Positions 10,318 through 22,674 of a DNA stretch of 64,000 nucleotides are shown here, one piece after another (the stretch's first letter is position 1; each line of letters starts with the position of its first letter). The notes under the pieces are model-generated. The model saw only the letters and a list, made by a program, of their open reading frames with translations. It was not told the origin of the DNA and did not search any database. A program made the translations under genes and the position numbers. Location: sequence record NC_070981.1, one strand, 5' to 3'. The DNA comes from Escherichia phage EK010.

Positions 10318-10395
10318 GCACCCTTAGCTCAATTGGATTAGAGTAGCGACCTTCTAAGTCGTCGGTTACAGGTTCGAATCCTGTAGGGTGCACCA
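10318..10395 (+). tRNA. tRNA-Arg (anticodon UCU)
   Basis: Hand-folded cloverleaf: 7-bp acceptor stem GCACCCT/AGGGTGC, anticodon loop CUUCUAA, T-arm ACAGG-TTCGAAT-CCTGT, encoded CCA. Confidence 0.85.
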
Positions 10396-15395: not shown

Positions 15396-16346
15396 ATGTC
15401 AATCTCCGCATCGATTGCTCCGGTAACACCAGCAGAGAACTTCGGTGAGTCAGTGTTCAAAGGAAGAGCTTGCTTTGGTACTTTTAACTGTATGCACATG
15501 TACTCTGTTACAGACATTAATGGTGAAAGTCTTAACCAAACAAGCCTTCGTGACAGAACTTCAGAAATTGAAGTTATTAACTTCTGGCCTCACAATTTTT
15601 ATGGCGTACCAGCTAAAGATATCGAAAATGCTTTAGTTGAAGCAACAGACATTTTTAATTCAATGTCTTGCTATAAAGATATGTTCTCTGTCACTTCGGT
15701 GAATTCAATTGCCGTGAACCTTCGAAACCATCCAGCAGACAAGGTGTTTACTGGACTAATGACCATCCGTAGCTATTTGGATGGTGATTTTAATGGAATG
15801 GAGTTCCTTCAGGAAGGCGTACAAGACAAGGAAGAGTTGCTTAAGCGACAACGAATCGGTTTAGCTCTACGCCTAGCTGGTTTAAGTCGTAACTTCTTTG
15901 GTCGCTGGTGTTATAGTAATGACGTAGACTCAACTGATGAGTCAGCAGCGACTTATTTTGATGGTGACATGAGTGCAATTGCATTTCTGCCACTAATTTG
16001 CACCACTGATGAATTTTCTGAAAACGTATGGGTTCAGAATGTGTTCGGTGTTGATGATAACCTAGATGGTTATGTACGAAACCATAATGATGGAGTTCTC
16101 CGTCGTATGGCACGTCGTCGTGACCAAGACCCTGACCATTACGAGAGTATGAGTGAATGGTTACGTCTCTGGTCAACTTGTGCAGGTCACAAGAGAGAAG
16201 TATTAGATCAGCGTATGGATAGAATTACTGTTCGTAGTTTTATTGAACGTCTGATGCAAGCAGTACCTTCCTCAATGACACCAGAAGAAGCTGGTGCCCG
16301 TGTTGTTTCCCTTTTTGATGAACTCGTGGAGTATTACAATGACTAA
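15396..16346 (+). CDS. hypothetical protein (316 aa)
   Basis: Track ORF. Confidence 0.65.
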   Translation: MSISASIAPVTPAENFGESVFKGRACFGTFNCMHMYSVTDINGESLNQTSLRDRTSEIEVINFWPHNFYGVPAKDIENALVEATDIFNSMSCYKDMFSVTSVNSIAVNLRNHPADKVFTGLMTIRSYLDGDFNGMEFLQEGVQDKEELLKRQRIGLALRLAGLSRNFFGRWCYSNDVDSTDESAATYFDGDMSAIAFLPLICTTDEFSENVWVQNVFGVDDNLDGYVRNHNDGVLRRMARRRDQDPDHYESMSEWLRLWSTCAGHKREVLDQRMDRITVRSFIERLMQAVPSSMTPEEAGARVVSLFDELVEYYND

Positions 16347-17145
16347 GCGCGCTTTCCTTATTGGCTCTGACCCTGAAATGTTTGTTCGTACTGCTTCCGG
16401 TATTATCACCTCTGTGGCTGGTAAGCTGGGCTGTTCTAAAGATAATAAAATTGATCTGGCTCCTGATGTTCGTCTTCAAGAAGACAACGTTCTGGCTGAG
16501 TTTGATATTAACCCACAGAAAGGGTTTGAAGCGTTTGATGATAATATTCAGCGTGGTATTGATCTGACTAACAAAGTTCTCAATGAACGTGGCATGGAGG
16601 CAGCACTTGGGATTAGCTCTCATGTGTTCACTTCAGAAGAACTTGAATCATTCCACCCGTCAGCTTTTGTATTTGGCTGTACTCCTGATTTCAATGCCTT
16701 CACTGGACAAAAGAACCCTTCACCAGTCGCAACCGATAAGGGTTTGCGTACTGCTGGGGGTCATGTGCACCTTGGTGTCTCCGGGACTTTAGAGATTACT
16801 CGACAAACTCAAATGATGTTGGGTGTGTTGTGTGATTACTTCCTGTCCTTGCCAGCTGTGATCATGGATAAAGACACTCGTCGTAAAGAGTTGTACGGAA
16901 AGGCTTCTGCCATTCGCTACAAAGATTACGGTATTGAATATCGTTCTCTTTCTAACTTCTGGATTGGTGATAAGTCCACTCGCAAGTTTGTTTATGAGCA
17001 AGTGGATAAGGTTGTTCAGGGTTGTGATATGGAAGTGTTGATGTCACTTCACTCTCGCCTTCCAATTGAAAAGCTTCATAACATCATCAACAGCAACGAT
17101 GTTAAAGAAGCGGATAAATTCTCCTCTAAACTCCAGATTGTATAA
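16339..17145 (+). CDS. amidoligase-like protein (GSDPE ... GGHVHLG motifs)
   Basis: Internal ATG of track ORF 16294-17145; HxH motif and pattern similar to 17778 gene. Confidence 0.45.
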   Translation: MTKRAFLIGSDPEMFVRTASGIITSVAGKLGCSKDNKIDLAPDVRLQEDNVLAEFDINPQKGFEAFDDNIQRGIDLTNKVLNERGMEAALGISSHVFTSEELESFHPSAFVFGCTPDFNAFTGQKNPSPVATDKGLRTAGGHVHLGVSGTLEITRQTQMMLGVLCDYFLSLPAVIMDKDTRRKELYGKASAIRYKDYGIEYRSLSNFWIGDKSTRKFVYEQVDKVVQGCDMEVLMSLHSRLPIEKLHNIINSNDVKEADKFSSKLQIV

Positions 17146-17154
17146 GGTGATATT

Positions 17155-17781
17155 ATGAGCTTGTTAAGAGATTTTCAACACTATTATTGTGGAACATGGA
17201 TTGCTCAGCGATCACCTGATGGTAAAAACCTCCCTCTATATGTGCTTGATGTTCGTCAGCAAGGTAACTTTGATATCGACGACTACTCACACGACGCTGA
17301 AATGTCTTTAGTGTTTGAGGCGGAACGCTGGACTAAAAACTCTGAAGGTCAGTTTGAACGTCAGATTGTTAGTAATATCCCAGTGTTTGATCACAGCCTC
17401 ATTCTAGAGTCTCCAGATGTAGGATACCTTCAGCATGGTAATAACATGGTGAGCTGGACCCATATCAACCCTGTTCGTCAGCGAGCTAAAGGCTTGATGG
17501 GGAATAAACTTCGTGGTGCTGCACCTTCTCTCGGACGTTCGATTCCGGGTGATTTGGTGTACAACTTGTTTAATCCAGAGTTTGAAGGGTTGGTTACTCG
17601 TTTCATCTATATCAACCCTGTCGATGGAAAAGTGTATTACAAAGGGGCTTACGTTGGAAACGTGCTTCTTGAAGCTGGCTATGGCGACAACGGTCGCCAA
17701 TCTTTAAACCTTCTGGAGAAGTTCAAGCATATTTCTTCAGACCTGTCATCATATAATGTAGAGTTGGTGGAATCATTATGA
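17155..17781 (+). CDS. hypothetical protein (208 aa)
   Basis: Track ORF. Confidence 0.6.
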   Translation: MSLLRDFQHYYCGTWIAQRSPDGKNLPLYVLDVRQQGNFDIDDYSHDAEMSLVFEAERWTKNSEGQFERQIVSNIPVFDHSLILESPDVGYLQHGNNMVSWTHINPVRQRAKGLMGNKLRGAAPSLGRSIPGDLVYNLFNPEFEGLVTRFIYINPVDGKVYYKGAYVGNVLLEAGYGDNGRQSLNLLEKFKHISSDLSSYNVELVESL

Positions 17782-18878
17782 CAACCGTAGCACAAGTTTT
17801 TGGATACCGTAACCCTCGCTTATCTGAACCACATCCAAGTATTGCTTTTCAGTGTGGTGTAGGTATTGAGTTAGAAGTCGAAGGTACAATTGACATTGAC
17901 GCTGATATGTGGGTTTGTACTGAAGATGGCTCTCTTCGTGATGGTTGTGAATTAGTGTGTGCACGACCTTACAACGGTGAAGAATTACTTCGTGCTATTA
18001 ACAATCTGAGTGAAGCAGTACAGGACTCTGGAGCCGAGGGAACTTGGCGCTGCTCCACTCACGTTCATATGGATATGCGGGACGCTGATAGTAATATCCT
18101 TAAGAAAGTTATTCTTGGGTGGACGTTCTATGAAAAGATGATGTTCAAATGTTCTGGATATCATCGTTACCGTAGTAACTTCTGCCCAGCTTTTGCTGTT
18201 GTTCAAGCTCAAGTTATGAATGCTTCATCAGCGTTCAACCGAGATGGGGAAGATTTCTTCCGTACTCTTGTTAATAGCTGGGACAAGTATACCTCCCTTA
18301 ACCTGTTGCCTCTATCTCAGTTTGGTTCTGTTGAGTTTCGTATTTCAGAGCCGAAGTGGAAAAAGAGTCAGCTGCTAAATCTGGTCAATCGCTTCTTGGT
18401 TCTCAAGAAACTGGCTGTTGAATATGCAGATTTAGATAATGAAGCTTATGTTGAGAAGTTGAATGAGCTGCGCTTCGCTCCTATGATTCAACATCTACCT
18501 CTAGACTATACTCCAAGAGATAGCGATCTCACTGAAGGGTATCGTCTTGCCCGTGATATTCTGTTCTGTCGTGAGCAATCTGTAACTTTGGTTGGTCGTG
18601 TTCGTGTGCAACAGACTGGCCCTGATGGTGAAGTCCTTATCAACTTACGTGATATGAATGACTTCTATGGTTTCTTGGGATATGTGCGCGGTAATGCCAA
18701 CACTGTCTATGAAGAGATCATGACCTACTACACTCCTCAGATTGAAAGCACTCGAATCGCAACGGTTCGTGAAATTCGTCACATGTTTGCATTGATGCGT
18801 GAATCAGGTAGCAGTGATAATAACATCACTGATTACATTCCAGACCATCTGGAAATGCAATTAGAACGACTGCTGTAA
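17778..18878 (+). CDS. putative amidoligase (GS/GCS-like, Amidoligase_2-type)
   Basis: GVGIELEVEG and STHVHMD motifs; sits next to a GATase and an AIG2-like gene. Confidence 0.55.
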   Translation: MTTVAQVFGYRNPRLSEPHPSIAFQCGVGIELEVEGTIDIDADMWVCTEDGSLRDGCELVCARPYNGEELLRAINNLSEAVQDSGAEGTWRCSTHVHMDMRDADSNILKKVILGWTFYEKMMFKCSGYHRYRSNFCPAFAVVQAQVMNASSAFNRDGEDFFRTLVNSWDKYTSLNLLPLSQFGSVEFRISEPKWKKSQLLNLVNRFLVLKKLAVEYADLDNEAYVEKLNELRFAPMIQHLPLDYTPRDSDLTEGYRLARDILFCREQSVTLVGRVRVQQTGPDGEVLINLRDMNDFYGFLGYVRGNANTVYEEIMTYYTPQIESTRIATVREIRHMFALMRESGSSDNNITDYIPDHLEMQLERLL

Positions 18879-18955
18879 CACAATGGGCGCTCTGATAAAG
18901 GGCGCATTTAAAGGTTAATTAGATGAAAGGGTTTACCCTTCAGGTGGATTAGAAA

Positions 18956-20989
18956 ATTTGTGGTATCGTATTAGCTGGCGGCAACATGACCTCAACAGAT
19001 TTGGATATTTTCAACCAACTTCTGTATGCTGGTGTTTTCCGGGGACAGCACTCAACTGGTGTGTTTGGTCAGCGTAAAGGTGAAAAGCAAGTCTTCTCTT
19101 ATAAAGAAGCTCTTCCTTCTTATGCTTTTATGCTCCAGACAGAATATACAAATATTACCAAAGGGCTTACGAACTACGTGGTTCCTCCTTCGTGGATTGT
19201 TGGTCACAGCCGACATGCCACTCGTGGGGCTGTCAATGCTCGAAATGCTCACCCATTTACTCACGGGGATATTACTCTGGTTCATAATGGAACCCTGTTA
19301 GATCAAGATCTCCTTCCTGACAGTAAGCGTTTCGAAGTTGATAGTGAAAACATCTGCCACTCAATTAATACCATTGGAGCAGCAGAGACTATCCAAAAAC
19401 TGGATGGTGCATTCACTTTAATCTGGCATGACGCCAAAGATAACACGCTTCACATTATCCGTAATGATGAGCGTCCTTTCCACCTAGCCCGTTGTGGTTT
19501 AGATTGGTTTGGGGCTTCTGAAGAAGCTATGCTTATGTGGATTTTAGAGCGTTCTAAATCCCACAAGAACCGTATCAATGACCACTTCGAGTGTAAAGTG
19601 GGAACTGAGTATATCTTTGATGTGTCTAACAGTCGTATGACTCTGGTTCAAGAGGTGGAGCACAAGCTTCCGGTTTTTACGGTAACGAGTCGCTGGGGCG
19701 GCTATTACTCGAACTCCTCTCTATATCAGAACCAACAGACAAACAAATCAAGCAGCAGCACAAGCGACATTTACGGAAACAAAGACGACAAGCCCGGCGT
19801 GACAAGCGGAGACATTCGTCGTCGTAAAGCGATTGAAGACCAGAACAAACTGGCTGCCGATCGTGGTCTTCCTTATCGTCGTGATGGTCGTGTGGATATT
19901 ATTCCTCACGAGTTCCATGCTTATAACAACACAGATCGTGGTAAGATGGTTGGTTACATCTACGACGATAAAGCCCAAGAGTATGTCGAAGGGGATGTTC
20001 ACAACGTAGCCAAAGATGAATATCTTAAGGCTCTTGAAAACCCAAAGGTAGTATATCGCGGGACGATTGCTTGTATCTCCGAAGTGGACAGTATGATTCG
20101 CCTCGTACTAACTTCAGGGCTGTTTGTTGATGCTACAGATAAGGAGCCTCAAAGCACTACTGCTGATTTTGATGATGATATCCCTTTTGATGCAGAGGAC
20201 TCCTTCATCACTAAAAATGGTGTAGAAGTCACTCGTAAGTTCTGGGAATCTCACTCTCATGGTGATTGTGGTGGTTGTGATAAGCACATTGACTGGAAAG
20301 ATGCTCGTAAGGCTGTGTTTGCTTATCAAGCATACTGGCATCCAGAATGCTTCGAAGCGTTATCTAAAACCTCTGAAGATGAAGAAGATGTGCCTTTGGG
20401 TGTATGTGCTATCTGTGGTGAAGTCAAGACTGATTTCGAGTTTGACAACGAAATGAGTAAACTTCGTGGTGAAGACGTTTGTTATATCTGCTCCAAAGAA
20501 ATCAAAGATAAAGTAAAGAATGTTACTCTATCTGAAGGTTATATTTGGACTAAAGCAGTAGACACAACCAACCCACGTCGTCCTGAAGTAGCTGTTCGTG
20601 TTGATGAACGTATGCTTAGCCGTATGATCGTAATGGTTAGCTCAGCAAAACGTTCAGGGGATATCACACTTGCAGATGTTCCTAATTCGTATTTGGAAAA
20701 ACGTGGTGGTGATACTTATGCCATCTCTGTTTATGGTCCAAAGAATGCCCCAAAGGAGGTACCCGCTGAGAAAGCGGAGACATTTCCAGAAAAGTCAACC
20801 TCTCTCCGAAAAACAGTTGTCAGTTACGATGGACAACGAACAGCTGAGTTTACAAAAGCCCTCTGGACTTCAATTGGGTTTTGTGCAGTCTGTTATAAAC
20901 AAATTCCGTGGCGTGATGCAGAAACTTGCTCACTAAACAAAGAAAATAGAGTGATCTGTAATTCAGATTACTGTAAAGGTAAACACTAA
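18956..20989 (+). CDS. class-II (Ntn) glutamine amidotransferase with Cys-rich C-terminal extension
   Basis: CGIVLAGG...LQ-like RGQHSTGV...HSRHATRG...NAHPF motifs; Cys nucleophile lies 9 codons upstream of the first ATG (18986), implying ATT start at ~18956 after AGGTGG SD. Confidence 0.8.
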   Translation: MCGIVLAGGNMTSTDLDIFNQLLYAGVFRGQHSTGVFGQRKGEKQVFSYKEALPSYAFMLQTEYTNITKGLTNYVVPPSWIVGHSRHATRGAVNARNAHPFTHGDITLVHNGTLLDQDLLPDSKRFEVDSENICHSINTIGAAETIQKLDGAFTLIWHDAKDNTLHIIRNDERPFHLARCGLDWFGASEEAMLMWILERSKSHKNRINDHFECKVGTEYIFDVSNSRMTLVQEVEHKLPVFTVTSRWGGYYSNSSLYQNQQTNKSSSSTSDIYGNKDDKPGVTSGDIRRRKAIEDQNKLAADRGLPYRRDGRVDIIPHEFHAYNNTDRGKMVGYIYDDKAQEYVEGDVHNVAKDEYLKALENPKVVYRGTIACISEVDSMIRLVLTSGLFVDATDKEPQSTTADFDDDIPFDAEDSFITKNGVEVTRKFWESHSHGDCGGCDKHIDWKDARKAVFAYQAYWHPECFEALSKTSEDEEDVPLGVCAICGEVKTDFEFDNEMSKLRGEDVCYICSKEIKDKVKNVTLSEGYIWTKAVDTTNPRRPEVAVRVDERMLSRMIVMVSSAKRSGDITLADVPNSYLEKRGGDTYAISVYGPKNAPKEVPAEKAETFPEKSTSLRKTVVSYDGQRTAEFTKALWTSIGFCAVCYKQIPWRDAETCSLNKENRVICNSDYCKGKH

Positions 20990-21438: not shown

Positions 21439-22674
21439 ATGACTACTCGTATCCGTGTTCTTCCGTATGGCCCTTCTGATTCTGTTAACGCTCTGGTAAC
21501 TGCCATTAACGATACTATCCGTGATGAACGTATCAACGCTAACATAATGGGTCTTCTTTCAGAGAACAGTCGCTGGCGTTCTCGTGAGGGTGATGTGGTT
21601 GTGAACTACGGGAACCGTCGCTATCCTGAATCCTTCTTTGGTTCTGCAACTGTCCTTAACCGTACCGCAGCCTTACATATGGCAGCGAACAAACGTCGTG
21701 CTTTCAGCGTGATGGACCAAGCAGGTGTTAAAACTGTTGAGTATACAGATGTTCAAGAGATTGCTCAGGAGTGGTCAAACTCTGGCAACATTGTGTATGA
21801 ACGTCATGAACTGACTGGTCACTCTGGTTCGGGTATCGTTGTTGTTGAGCCTCGTGATTCAATTGGTCAAGCTGAACTGTACACCAAAGGTATTCAAGGT
21901 CCACGTCGTGAATGGCGTGTCCATGTGTTCAAAGGTGTTATCACCTATGTTCAGAAGAAGATTCGTCGTAACGGCTATCGTGAAGACCCTAACTATCGTG
22001 AAGATGTTCGTAACCATCACACTGGTTGGGTTTACTCAAGTTCCTTCACAGACGCTCCAAATGATGCATCTCTGATCAACGCAGTGAAAGCTGTTGAATC
22101 AATGGGTCTGGATTTCGGTGCAGTTGATATCATCACCAAAGGTCAAGAAGCGTGGGTACTGGAAGTTAATACAGCACCGGGCCTGACTGGTACAACTCTG
22201 GATACCTACCGTCATAACATTCTTGAGTTTGTTAAAGCTCAAAACCCTCTCTATACCCCTCAGTATAAAGTGGTTTACCAGACTCCGATTGAAGATGGAG
22301 ACGGTGAGTTGGTGGATGATATTGAAAGTGCTGATGATGAAAACTTTGCACTGGAAGGACAAGTAGCACAGCCGATTGATTCAGTTGATGTGGTTCCTGA
22401 AGAAATGCAACTGGAAGGTCAGATGAATACTCAAACTATTCGTAATGCACCTACTGGCTACACTTTGTCTCGTGGCTACTGGATTGCAAATATCCGTCAT
22501 GTCCACAACAACCTGCAACCGAATGCAATGTCTGCCAATGTCATCCTGTTCTGTGATGGTCGTAACTTCTACCGCAGTGGTTGGAACGTTCCGGTCAATC
22601 CAGTCCAGATTCATAACCCTCGCAAGTTAGAGTCTGTCAATGTTGAAGGTAGCGAAGTAGCAGTAACTCTGTAA
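21439..22674 (+). CDS. ATP-grasp family ligase
   Basis: GHSGSGIVVV, EWRVHVF, WVLEVNTAPGLTG motifs. Confidence 0.7.
   Translation: MTTRIRVLPYGPSDSVNALVTAINDTIRDERINANIMGLLSENSRWRSREGDVVVNYGNRRYPESFFGSATVLNRTAALHMAANKRRAFSVMDQAGVKTVEYTDVQEIAQEWSNSGNIVYERHELTGHSGSGIVVVEPRDSIGQAELYTKGIQGPRREWRVHVFKGVITYVQKKIRRNGYREDPNYREDVRNHHTGWVYSSSFTDAPNDASLINAVKAVESMGLDFGAVDIITKGQEAWVLEVNTAPGLTGTTLDTYRHNILEFVKAQNPLYTPQYKVVYQTPIEDGDGELVDDIESADDENFALEGQVAQPIDSVDVVPEEMQLEGQMNTQTIRNAPTGYTLSRGYWIANIRHVHNNLQPNAMSANVILFCDGRNFYRSGWNVPVNPVQIHNPRKLESVNVEGSEVAVTL

Follow-up and report, generated by a model that had tools for sequence, protein, structure and literature searches.

The stretch of DNA analysed here, referred to below as the window, comprises 64,000 nucleotides (nt) of Escherichia phage EK010 (NC_070981.1). 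It belongs to a phiEco32-like coliphage and is 100% identical to Escherichia phage E20-1, and its plus strand carries at 18956-20989 a predicted gene for a class-II glutamine amidotransferase, an enzyme of the N-terminal nucleophile (Ntn) type, whose translation probably begins at an AUU codon. The strand reads ATG(18923) AAA GGG TTT ACC CTT CAG GTG GAT TAG(18950) AAA ATT(18956) TGT(18959) and continues after this TGT, in the same frame, with GGT ATC GTA TTA GCT GGC GGC AAC ATG(18986). Between the in-frame TAG at 18950 and the TGT at 18959 only AAA and ATT occur, with no in-frame ATG, GTG or TTG, and ATT 18956 is the sole start that places Cys at position 2 of the protein. The features of the gene and its start region are listed below.

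18956..20989, plus strand: corrected coding sequence (CDS) of the class-II glutamine amidotransferase, 677 codons and TAA.
Within 18956..20989, plus strand: N-terminal Ntn domain, approximately residues 1-245 counted from Cys, followed by a Cys-rich C-terminal region.
18956..18958, plus strand: ATT, the putative initiation codon, to be read by fMet-tRNA (evidence: sequence, database records and conservation).
18959..18961, plus strand: TGT, encoding Cys1, the N-terminal nucleophile once Met is removed (evidence: homology, profile and predicted fold).
18942..18947, plus strand: Shine-Dalgarno (SD) sequence AGGTGG, 8 nt 5' of the ATT.
18948..18955, plus strand: 8-nt spacer ATTAGAAA, which holds the in-frame TAG (18950-18952) of the upstream open reading frame (uORF).
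18927..18940, plus strand: hairpin AAGGG-TTTA-CCCTT, ending 1 nt before the SD, the local version of an SD-abutting hairpin.
18923..18952, plus strand: uORF of nine codons (MKGFTLQVD) and TAG, in the amidotransferase frame.
18910..18915, plus strand: SD-like AAAGGT, 7 nt 5' of the uORF ATG.
18909..18963, plus strand: 55-nt leader (uORF SD, uORF, hairpin, SD, spacer, ATT, TGT, GG), invariant in ten phages of three genera.
18986..18988, plus strand: ATG encoding an internal Met, residue 10 from Cys1, the start in the E20-1, SU7 and ECBP2 records.
18958..18962, plus strand: out-of-frame TTG 18958 (open reading frame, ORF, of 39 codons) and GTG 18960 (4 codons), overlapping the start site.

An earlier sequence-only reading of this DNA had placed the string TAG-AAA-ATT-TGT-GGT-ATC-GTA in frame 5' of ATG 18986, put the ATT at about 18956, 8 nt past an AGGTGG, and regarded it as the only route to Cys at position 2. 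Direct reading bears out all three points, with AGGTGG at 18942-18947 and no canonical in-frame start in 18950-18959. The short frame from ATG 18923 that it described is real as well, but its TAG does not directly adjoin the ATT, as had been stated, since one AAA codon (3 nt) intervenes; that the uORF shares the frame of the amidotransferase was absent from that reading.

The identity of the enzyme was assessed by homology, profile and structure comparisons. Met-Cys-Gly begins 100 of the 120 database homologues of the N-domain, the closest canonical homologue having the N-terminus MCGIVLAGGNLGSSDLEIFNQLLY against (I)CGIVLAGGNMTSTDLDIFNQLLY in the window, and tblastn matches start almost always exactly at the Cys (26, then 80 viral loci). 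Both Pfam GATase_6 and GATase_7 score above their cut-offs, and the alignment to PHROG 4736 sets the Cys at profile position 2. In a 48-member alignment of the family C1, G2, R28, G29, R85, N110, G111 and D128 are invariant and T88 is kept in at least 90% of members; C1, R28, R85, T88, N110-G111 and D128 fall in register with C1, R26, R73, T76, N98-G99 and D123 of GlmS. The profile built from this alignment matches E. coli GlmS with E = 1e-17 and lays MCG[IL]VG on Cys1 of GlmS and on that of both the E. coli and the B. subtilis PurF. The AlphaFold (AF2) model generated from the alignment has a predicted local distance difference test score (pLDDT) of 90.3 and a predicted template-modelling score (pTM) of 0.87, with a strand at residues 2-7 right after the Cys. 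The top Foldseek match of this model in the PDB is GlmS 1xff (E = 3e-14, template-modelling (TM) scores 0.64/0.70), and the glutaminase domains of PurF, GFAT1, ASNS and EgtC are among the other matches.

The features that define class-II amidotransferases are accordingly found together: the Cys comes first, provided that translation starts at ATT 18956, the glutamine-binding and oxyanion residues are present, and the predicted model has the four-layer Ntn fold with the nucleophile opening the first beta-strand. The profile, the catalytic residues and the predicted fold agree that the CGIV segment is the N-terminal nucleophile of a class-II amidotransferase, and the enzyme looks catalytically intact and dependent on Cys1. 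The sequence-only reading had recognised CGIV as a PurF-type Ntn N-terminus and named, as a possible refutation, a formal alignment showing no homology to the nucleophile region; the homologue, profile and fold comparisons uphold the assignment, the GlmS match given above aligning the segment with Cys1. As a separate observation, the C-terminal third (approximately 20200-20989) contains three zinc-ribbon-like CxxC...CxxC motifs (HGDCGGCDKH...HPEC, CAICGEV...CYICSKE and CAVCYKQ...CNSDYC), for which Pfam returned only a weak LIM match (E = 0.008), and the family consensus likewise ends in GCxxC...CxxC.

The fold, the catalytic residues and the Cys-first requirement are common to GlmS, PurF, AsnB and the window enzyme. 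The former start with Met-Cys from an ATG or carry a cleaved propeptide (B. subtilis PurF). The phage enzyme differs from them in its acceptor domain, its Cys-rich C-terminal region and its amidoligase and ATP-grasp neighbours. This neighbourhood matches the phage cluster of amidoligase, glutamine amidotransferase (GATase) and ATP-grasp genes (Pfam 'Phage phiEco32-like COOH.NH2 ligase', Amidoligase_2 and RimK-like), whose description does not include an AUU start and whose function, to our knowledge, is predicted only.

The start region is conserved well beyond the window. Around the invariant 55-nt leader, only 20-26% of the third-codon positions in the flanking genes are invariant, and the next-longest invariant run measures 14 nt. 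A 70-nt leader is at least 98.6% identical across all 95 Escherichia and Shigella phage records, and the ATT is kept in 95 of 95 of these relatives and in Aeromonas phage BUCT695, a member of a different family (Grimontviridae), whose leader is 89% identical while its protein is only 56% identical. ATG 18986, on the other hand, is found only in the Suseptimavirus subgroup (E20-1, SU7, Bas87, ECBP2), its position being occupied by CTG or CTC in Kuravirus (phiEco32, SU10, 172-1) and Nieuwekanaalvirus (EP335, KBNP1711). The nine codons leading from the Cys to ATG 18986 vary synonymously (GGT/GGC, GCT/GCA, GGC/GGT), so that the encoded residues are conserved. Two marks of an AUU-started gene are thus present: the conserved N-terminus has no canonical in-frame start and an AUU properly spaced from an SD, and the AUU is conserved among orthologues and is not a strain-specific mutation.

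The ATT start itself is not new, as the phiEco32, SU10 and Bas87 records already carry it. The CDS begins at ATT in phi32_83 of phiEco32, in gp85 of SU10 (GenBank and RefSeq) and in Bas87_0079, orthologues whose leader is identical to that of the window and whose records keep the Cys. Most other records, including that of E20-1, start downstream and lose it. The annotated start is a downstream ATG in E20-1, SU7, ECBP2 and BUCT695, an internal ATG in EP335 and Pseudomonas phage O4, an internal GTG in KBNP1711, a downstream TTG in FBPa8 and an out-of-frame ATG in 172-1, so that every annotated model but the ATT one is without the catalytic Cys. The literature examined on these phages, the original phiEco32 genome and transcription papers not being part of it, does not comment on the start codon. 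Mass spectrometry on SU10 identified 9 peptides of gp85 (23.7% coverage), its N-terminus not being reported (PMC4281155), and the protein is therefore made; the N-terminal tryptic peptide expected of the ATT-start protein after Met removal is CGIVLAGGNMTSTDLDIFNQLLYAGVFR. The expected mass listed for SU10 gp85 is 63.8 kDa (PMC4281155, Table 2), and the deposited CDS of 2,031 nt corresponds to about 75 kDa; the search database of that proteomic study may have used a shorter gene model.

A start of this kind recurs across the enzyme family. The codon before the Cys at 80 viral-contig loci is ATG in 64, with 3 further mis-registered ATG, ATT in 9 (five of them phiEco32-like), ATC in 3 and TTG in 1. 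A rough neighbour-joining tree has the ATT or ATC (ATY) state in five or more places, one of them a deep clade where 6 of the 7 members show it, ATT and ATC interchanging between relatives that are 77-82% identical. Of the 14 distinct ATY loci, 11 lack any canonical in-frame start in the interval that runs from the closest stop 5' of the Cys to the Cys itself. Since ATT and ATC interchange while ATG, one mutation away, is not taken, comparison of these loci speaks for a weak start kept by selection. The SD is slightly stronger at ATY than at ATG loci (median -7.0 vs -6.1 kcal/mol, p = 0.02 with kinship ignored), which is a weak difference.

A metagenome scan with the 18-mer GGATTAGAAAATTTGTGG gave 45 matches, including 10 phiEco32-like sequences and 10 other genuine members of the family. 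The latter represent 8 distinct genes (hidden Markov model E from 1e-19 to 1e-97), all of which read GGAGG-ATTAGAAA-ATT-TGT-GG, with the common string GGAGGATTAGAAA-ATT-TGTGG; the spacer ATTAGAAA is thus also found in relatives without the uORF. The N-domains encoded behind this identical cassette have a median identity of 32% (range 24-59%), and 22 of 23 positions match between CAGGTGGATTAGAAAATTTGTGG of the window and CAGGAGGATTAGAAAATTTGTGG of its distant relatives. Among cultured phages, a short N-terminal query from one of the cassette loci (L156) found no matches. Pseudomonas phage O4 reads GGAGG-ATAAAATT-ATC-TGT, and FBPa8 the same with ATT. Their congener PA11 has a near-identical N-terminus (CGLVGVAGAVTFNLEKTFR...), a TTG start, an unrelated leader and no hairpin. 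It seems that the initiation region of these Pseudomonas phages was exchanged as a module rather than altered by point mutation.

In 13 of the 14 ATY loci a compact hairpin lies directly 5' of the SD and ends 10-16 nt before the start codon. The stem sequences differ between lineages, with about 15 leaders having distinct stems, and the 8 metagenome cassette genes, O4 and FBPa8 each carry yet another one. The association was examined by a start-anchored test with dinucleotide-preserving shuffles, phylogeny not being corrected for. The region from -37 to -13 of 20 distinct ATY leaders had a mean energy of -5.50 kcal/mol versus -2.54 +/- 0.37 for the shuffles (z = -8.0; 0 of 500 shuffles as stable), whereas the same region of 58 canonical-start loci gave -1.10 vs -1.15 kcal/mol (z = +0.4). 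The O4/PA11 pair provides an independent contrast for this association. As judged by these comparisons, the hairpin is specific to ATY loci. The cassette of hairpin, SD, 8 nt and AUY appears to be new. Hairpins flanking an initiation region have been found to stimulate expression (Osterman et al., PMC3592434). The fold of the whole leader was not significantly stable (z = -0.59), and an Rfam search revealed no known RNA family in it, the best match (E = 0.26) being far below the gathering threshold.

The favoured explanation, to which a probability of roughly 0.8 is assigned on the comparative evidence, is that 18956-20989 is a class-II amidotransferase gene translated from AUU 18956 within a conserved initiation cassette. 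The initiator tRNA would read the near-cognate AUU, positioned by the AGGUGG 8 nt upstream, and the N-terminal Met would then be removed to expose Cys1. The cassette comprises an SD with a small hairpin directly 5' of it, a spacer of 8 A/U-rich nt, AUU or AUC and then UGU-GG; it is old and strongly conserved, being common to enzymes that are only about 30% identical. The weak start may keep the enzyme level low and its synthesis sensitive to initiation factor 3 (IF3), by analogy with infC and pcnB, while the hairpin and the strong SD would keep initiation efficient enough and in register. In the phiEco32-like phages the uORF overlies the hairpin and the SD and stops 3 nt before the AUU, and ribosomes terminating there may add to initiation. 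The earlier proposal that initiation at AUU 18956 exposes the Ntn Cys is thus strongly supported by the comparison of relatives.

Several points weigh against this explanation. AUU is a poor start codon, and it is overlapped here by the stronger out-of-frame TTG (18958) and GTG (18960), which may compete with it. The SD of the window is AGGUGG, where other members of the cassette group have AGGAGG and BUCT695 has AGGCGG. The hairpin energies are no better than those of other windows of the same loci, and for this reason the case for the hairpin rests on its position and on the shuffle test. The group comparisons between ATY and ATG loci were not corrected for phylogeny. Sequence comparison shows the homology, the intact active site, a conserved ATT and the hairpin-bearing cassette; we infer that the AUU is used, that Met is removed and that the uORF has any role, and the reason for keeping a weak start, whether dosage or IF3 sensing, is pure inference.

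A close known parallel is E. coli infC, where a rare AUU likewise lies 3 nt past the stop of an upstream frame; by analogy, sensitivity to IF3 would be expected in both. At infC, however, the AUU serves autoregulation by the gene's own product, IF3, whereas the product here is an amidotransferase, and the upstream frame here is a nine-codon uORF rather than a gene, with a hairpin abutting the SD. In a reporter AUU gave about one sixth to one eighth of the expression obtained with AUG, and with the thrS-infC arrangement UAA-GGU-AUU about half of the initiation came from reinitiation, shared with de novo initiation (PMC3592434). The weak AUU start of E. coli pcnB limits the level of the enzyme, as the work of Binns and Masters (2002) is summarised in PMC3592434. 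By analogy, a pcnB-like limitation of the enzyme level is most likely the rationale for the phage gene too. We know of no hairpin-SD cassette and no family-wide recurrence of the start for pcnB.

The role of the uORF bears on an alternative in which the AUU is reached mainly by termination and reinitiation from the uORF, SD-directed de novo initiation being minor. An SD-like element stands 7 nt 5' of the uORF, which is part of the messenger RNA, because the promoters of the phiEco32 sigma factor gp36 map elsewhere, only upstream of genes 6, 13, 26, 40, 58 and 68 and not at gene 83, and long sigma-70 transcripts cover the early genes (PMC8948821). The 95 coliphage records and BUCT695 keep the uORF and its frame as well as the TAG and the 3-nt gap (UAG AAA AUU), the leader 5' of the hairpin (18909-18926) is invariant too, and the stop-to-restart geometry is that of thrS-infC. 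By this likeness uORF-driven reinitiation at the AUU is plausible. It does not, however, account for the cassette elsewhere. The uORF is restricted to the phiEco32-like phages and BUCT695, and the SD-spacer-AUU cassette occurs without such a uORF in L156, L168, L175, L165, L174, L148, O4 and FBPa8; the upstream frame is therefore not conserved wherever the weak restart codon is, and a small ORF ending at TAG is absent from most of the other cassette genes. A stop codon 3-4 nt upstream is enriched at ATY starts (10/14 vs 17/59, p = 0.004), but half of these stops close no ORF, and ATY starts are not in general coupled to the stop of a preceding gene, an arrangement seen at 1 of 14 ATY loci against 24 of 53 ATG loci. 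BUCT695 retains the length and frame of the uORF, the TAG, the AAA gap and the ATT; it lacks the uORF SD (AAATGT for AAAGGT), has the weaker main SD and encodes the peptide MKGLTLQAD, with two non-synonymous changes and no synonymous one. Scans of viral and metagenome contigs for variants of the uORF leader gave only identical leaders, so that selection on the uORF is unmeasurable beyond BUCT695. Finally, TAGATGAAAGG predates the uORF; in GAP52, where its ATG is out of frame, an ordinary ATG-TGT start has the AAAGGA within it as SD. Predominant reinitiation is accordingly considered unlikely, if worth keeping in view. Since the same cassette stands in at least 8 divergent genes without the uORF, the latter is not generally needed and looks like a lineage-specific addition, which is not required for AUU initiation and may feed ribosomes to the AUU.

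The same leader invites three further readings. The invariance of the leader could reflect a DNA-level element, such as a promoter or operator, or a 5'-terminal stabilising hairpin, with the uORF a by-product and the AUU still used. BUCT695 (L119) and L040-L044 carry TTTAAATGTAA where the window has TTTAAAGGTTAA; the former resembles the phiEco32 sigma consensus tAATGTAtA (PMC12276001, PMC8948821) and as a promoter would place the start of transcription near the uORF ATG, and a short open frame is likely to follow any ATG simply by chance. Yet none of the mapped gp36 promoters lies 5' of gene 83, a sigma-70 scan found nothing in the leader, whose motif occurs once in the window, and phages 7-11 and GAP52 were reported to have a different sigma consensus, all of which makes such an element improbable. 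Much more remote is a start at the uORF ATG 18923 with read-through of the UAG and autocatalytic cleavage of a 12-residue propeptide (MKGFTLQVD-x-KI) to Cys1. Some Ntn amidotransferases, such as B. subtilis PurF, do carry cleavable propeptides, the uORF is in frame with the enzyme, and the databases give several homologues a short N-terminal extension that ends in Ile-Cys. However, the frame from that start to the Cys is not continuously open, since the TAG closes it two codons ahead of the Cys. This phage uses TAG as a regular stop, ending 6 of 57 long plus-strand ORFs, and the sole tRNA of the window is Arg-TCT and hence no suppressor; reassignment or suppression of TAG was rejected on these grounds. 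In most ATY relatives, moreover, a stop closes the frame 2-5 codons upstream and there is no start 5' of the site, and the uORF is without the synonymous-only variation expected of a conserved propeptide. Hardly more credible is a protein starting at ATG 18986, which would be a non-catalytic pseudo-enzyme without the nucleophile, the CGIVLAGGN codons being a relic. This ATG is the first canonical start and is used by three records, but it is absent in Kuravirus and Nieuwekanaalvirus, no SD precedes it (the sequence there is GCTGGCGGCAAC), the nine upstream codons vary synonymously as protein-coding sequence does, and the catalytic residues are all intact. A -1 frameshift on A-AAU-UUG (18954-18960) was also considered and dismissed, as inspection shows the amidotransferase frame to be neither the incoming nor the outgoing one.

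Some observations on the leader stand apart from these readings. The scan of the leader for sigma-70 promoters or intrinsic terminators found none, and TTAAATGTAA-like strings are not enriched. TTTAAATGTAA(A/T) is present just 5' of the amidotransferase start in GAP52 (L134) as well. In BUCT695 about 200 nt without an annotated gene are inserted between the amidoligase and the conserved leader (L119 2305-2500); the insert encodes fragments resembling the N-terminus of an HNH endonuclease (GDCWLWTGCINSDGYPK) and a helix-turn-helix, and it may be the remnant of a homing endonuclease.

The gene belongs to a cluster in the order COOH-NH2 ligase (16294-17145), a protein of unknown function, amidoligase, amidotransferase, two small ORFs and a RimK-like ATP-grasp protein (21439-22674). 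The remaining features are the following.

17778..18878, plus strand: amidoligase (Pfam Amidoligase_2), the upstream gene, with stop TAA at 18876-18878, in the early cluster shared with the amidotransferase.
18887..18905, plus strand: intercistronic hairpin GCGCTCT / AGGGCGC (loop GATAA, no U-tract), just 3' of the amidoligase stop.
10318-10395: tRNA-Arg, anticodon TCT, the single tRNA gene of the window.

The 7-bp hairpin at 18887-18905 is preserved by compensatory changes in other genera (GTGCCTC / GGGGCAC) and may be an element of RNA processing or stability rather than a terminator. With the GTG listed as its start, the COOH-NH2 ligase ORF shares 53 nt with the ORF before it, and PHROG 3815 aligns to this protein from residue 16 only; translation probably begins at ATG 16339 instead, where the overlap with the upstream stop codon is 8 nt.

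The amidotransferase joins the genes initiated at AUU, such as infC and pcnB, as a probable phage-borne case. Three things appear to be new, namely a start that recurs across the family, ATT or ATC replacing ATG ahead of the Cys in five or more of its lineages, the cassette described above and the extent of mis-annotation. The E20-1, SU7, ECBP2, EP335, KBNP1711, 172-1, BUCT695, O4 and FBPa8 records delete the catalytic Cys, and since they start downstream of it, automated pipelines will propagate truncated, apparently inactive models. The true start can be read from the DNA itself because the enzyme family must begin with Cys. A wider suggestion is offered tentatively, at somewhat less than even odds: phage Ntn-amidotransferase genes may possess in this cassette an ancient element dedicated to translational control, kept and swapped as a module and setting a low enzyme level or a link to host initiation and IF3, in which the hairpin would be required for the weak codon or for the choice of AUU over UUG and GUG and the uORF would form a second input. 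The family represents a rare natural test set for non-AUG initiation, in which AUU and AUC starts appear to be evolutionarily stable, recurrent and tied to a specific hairpin-SD architecture.

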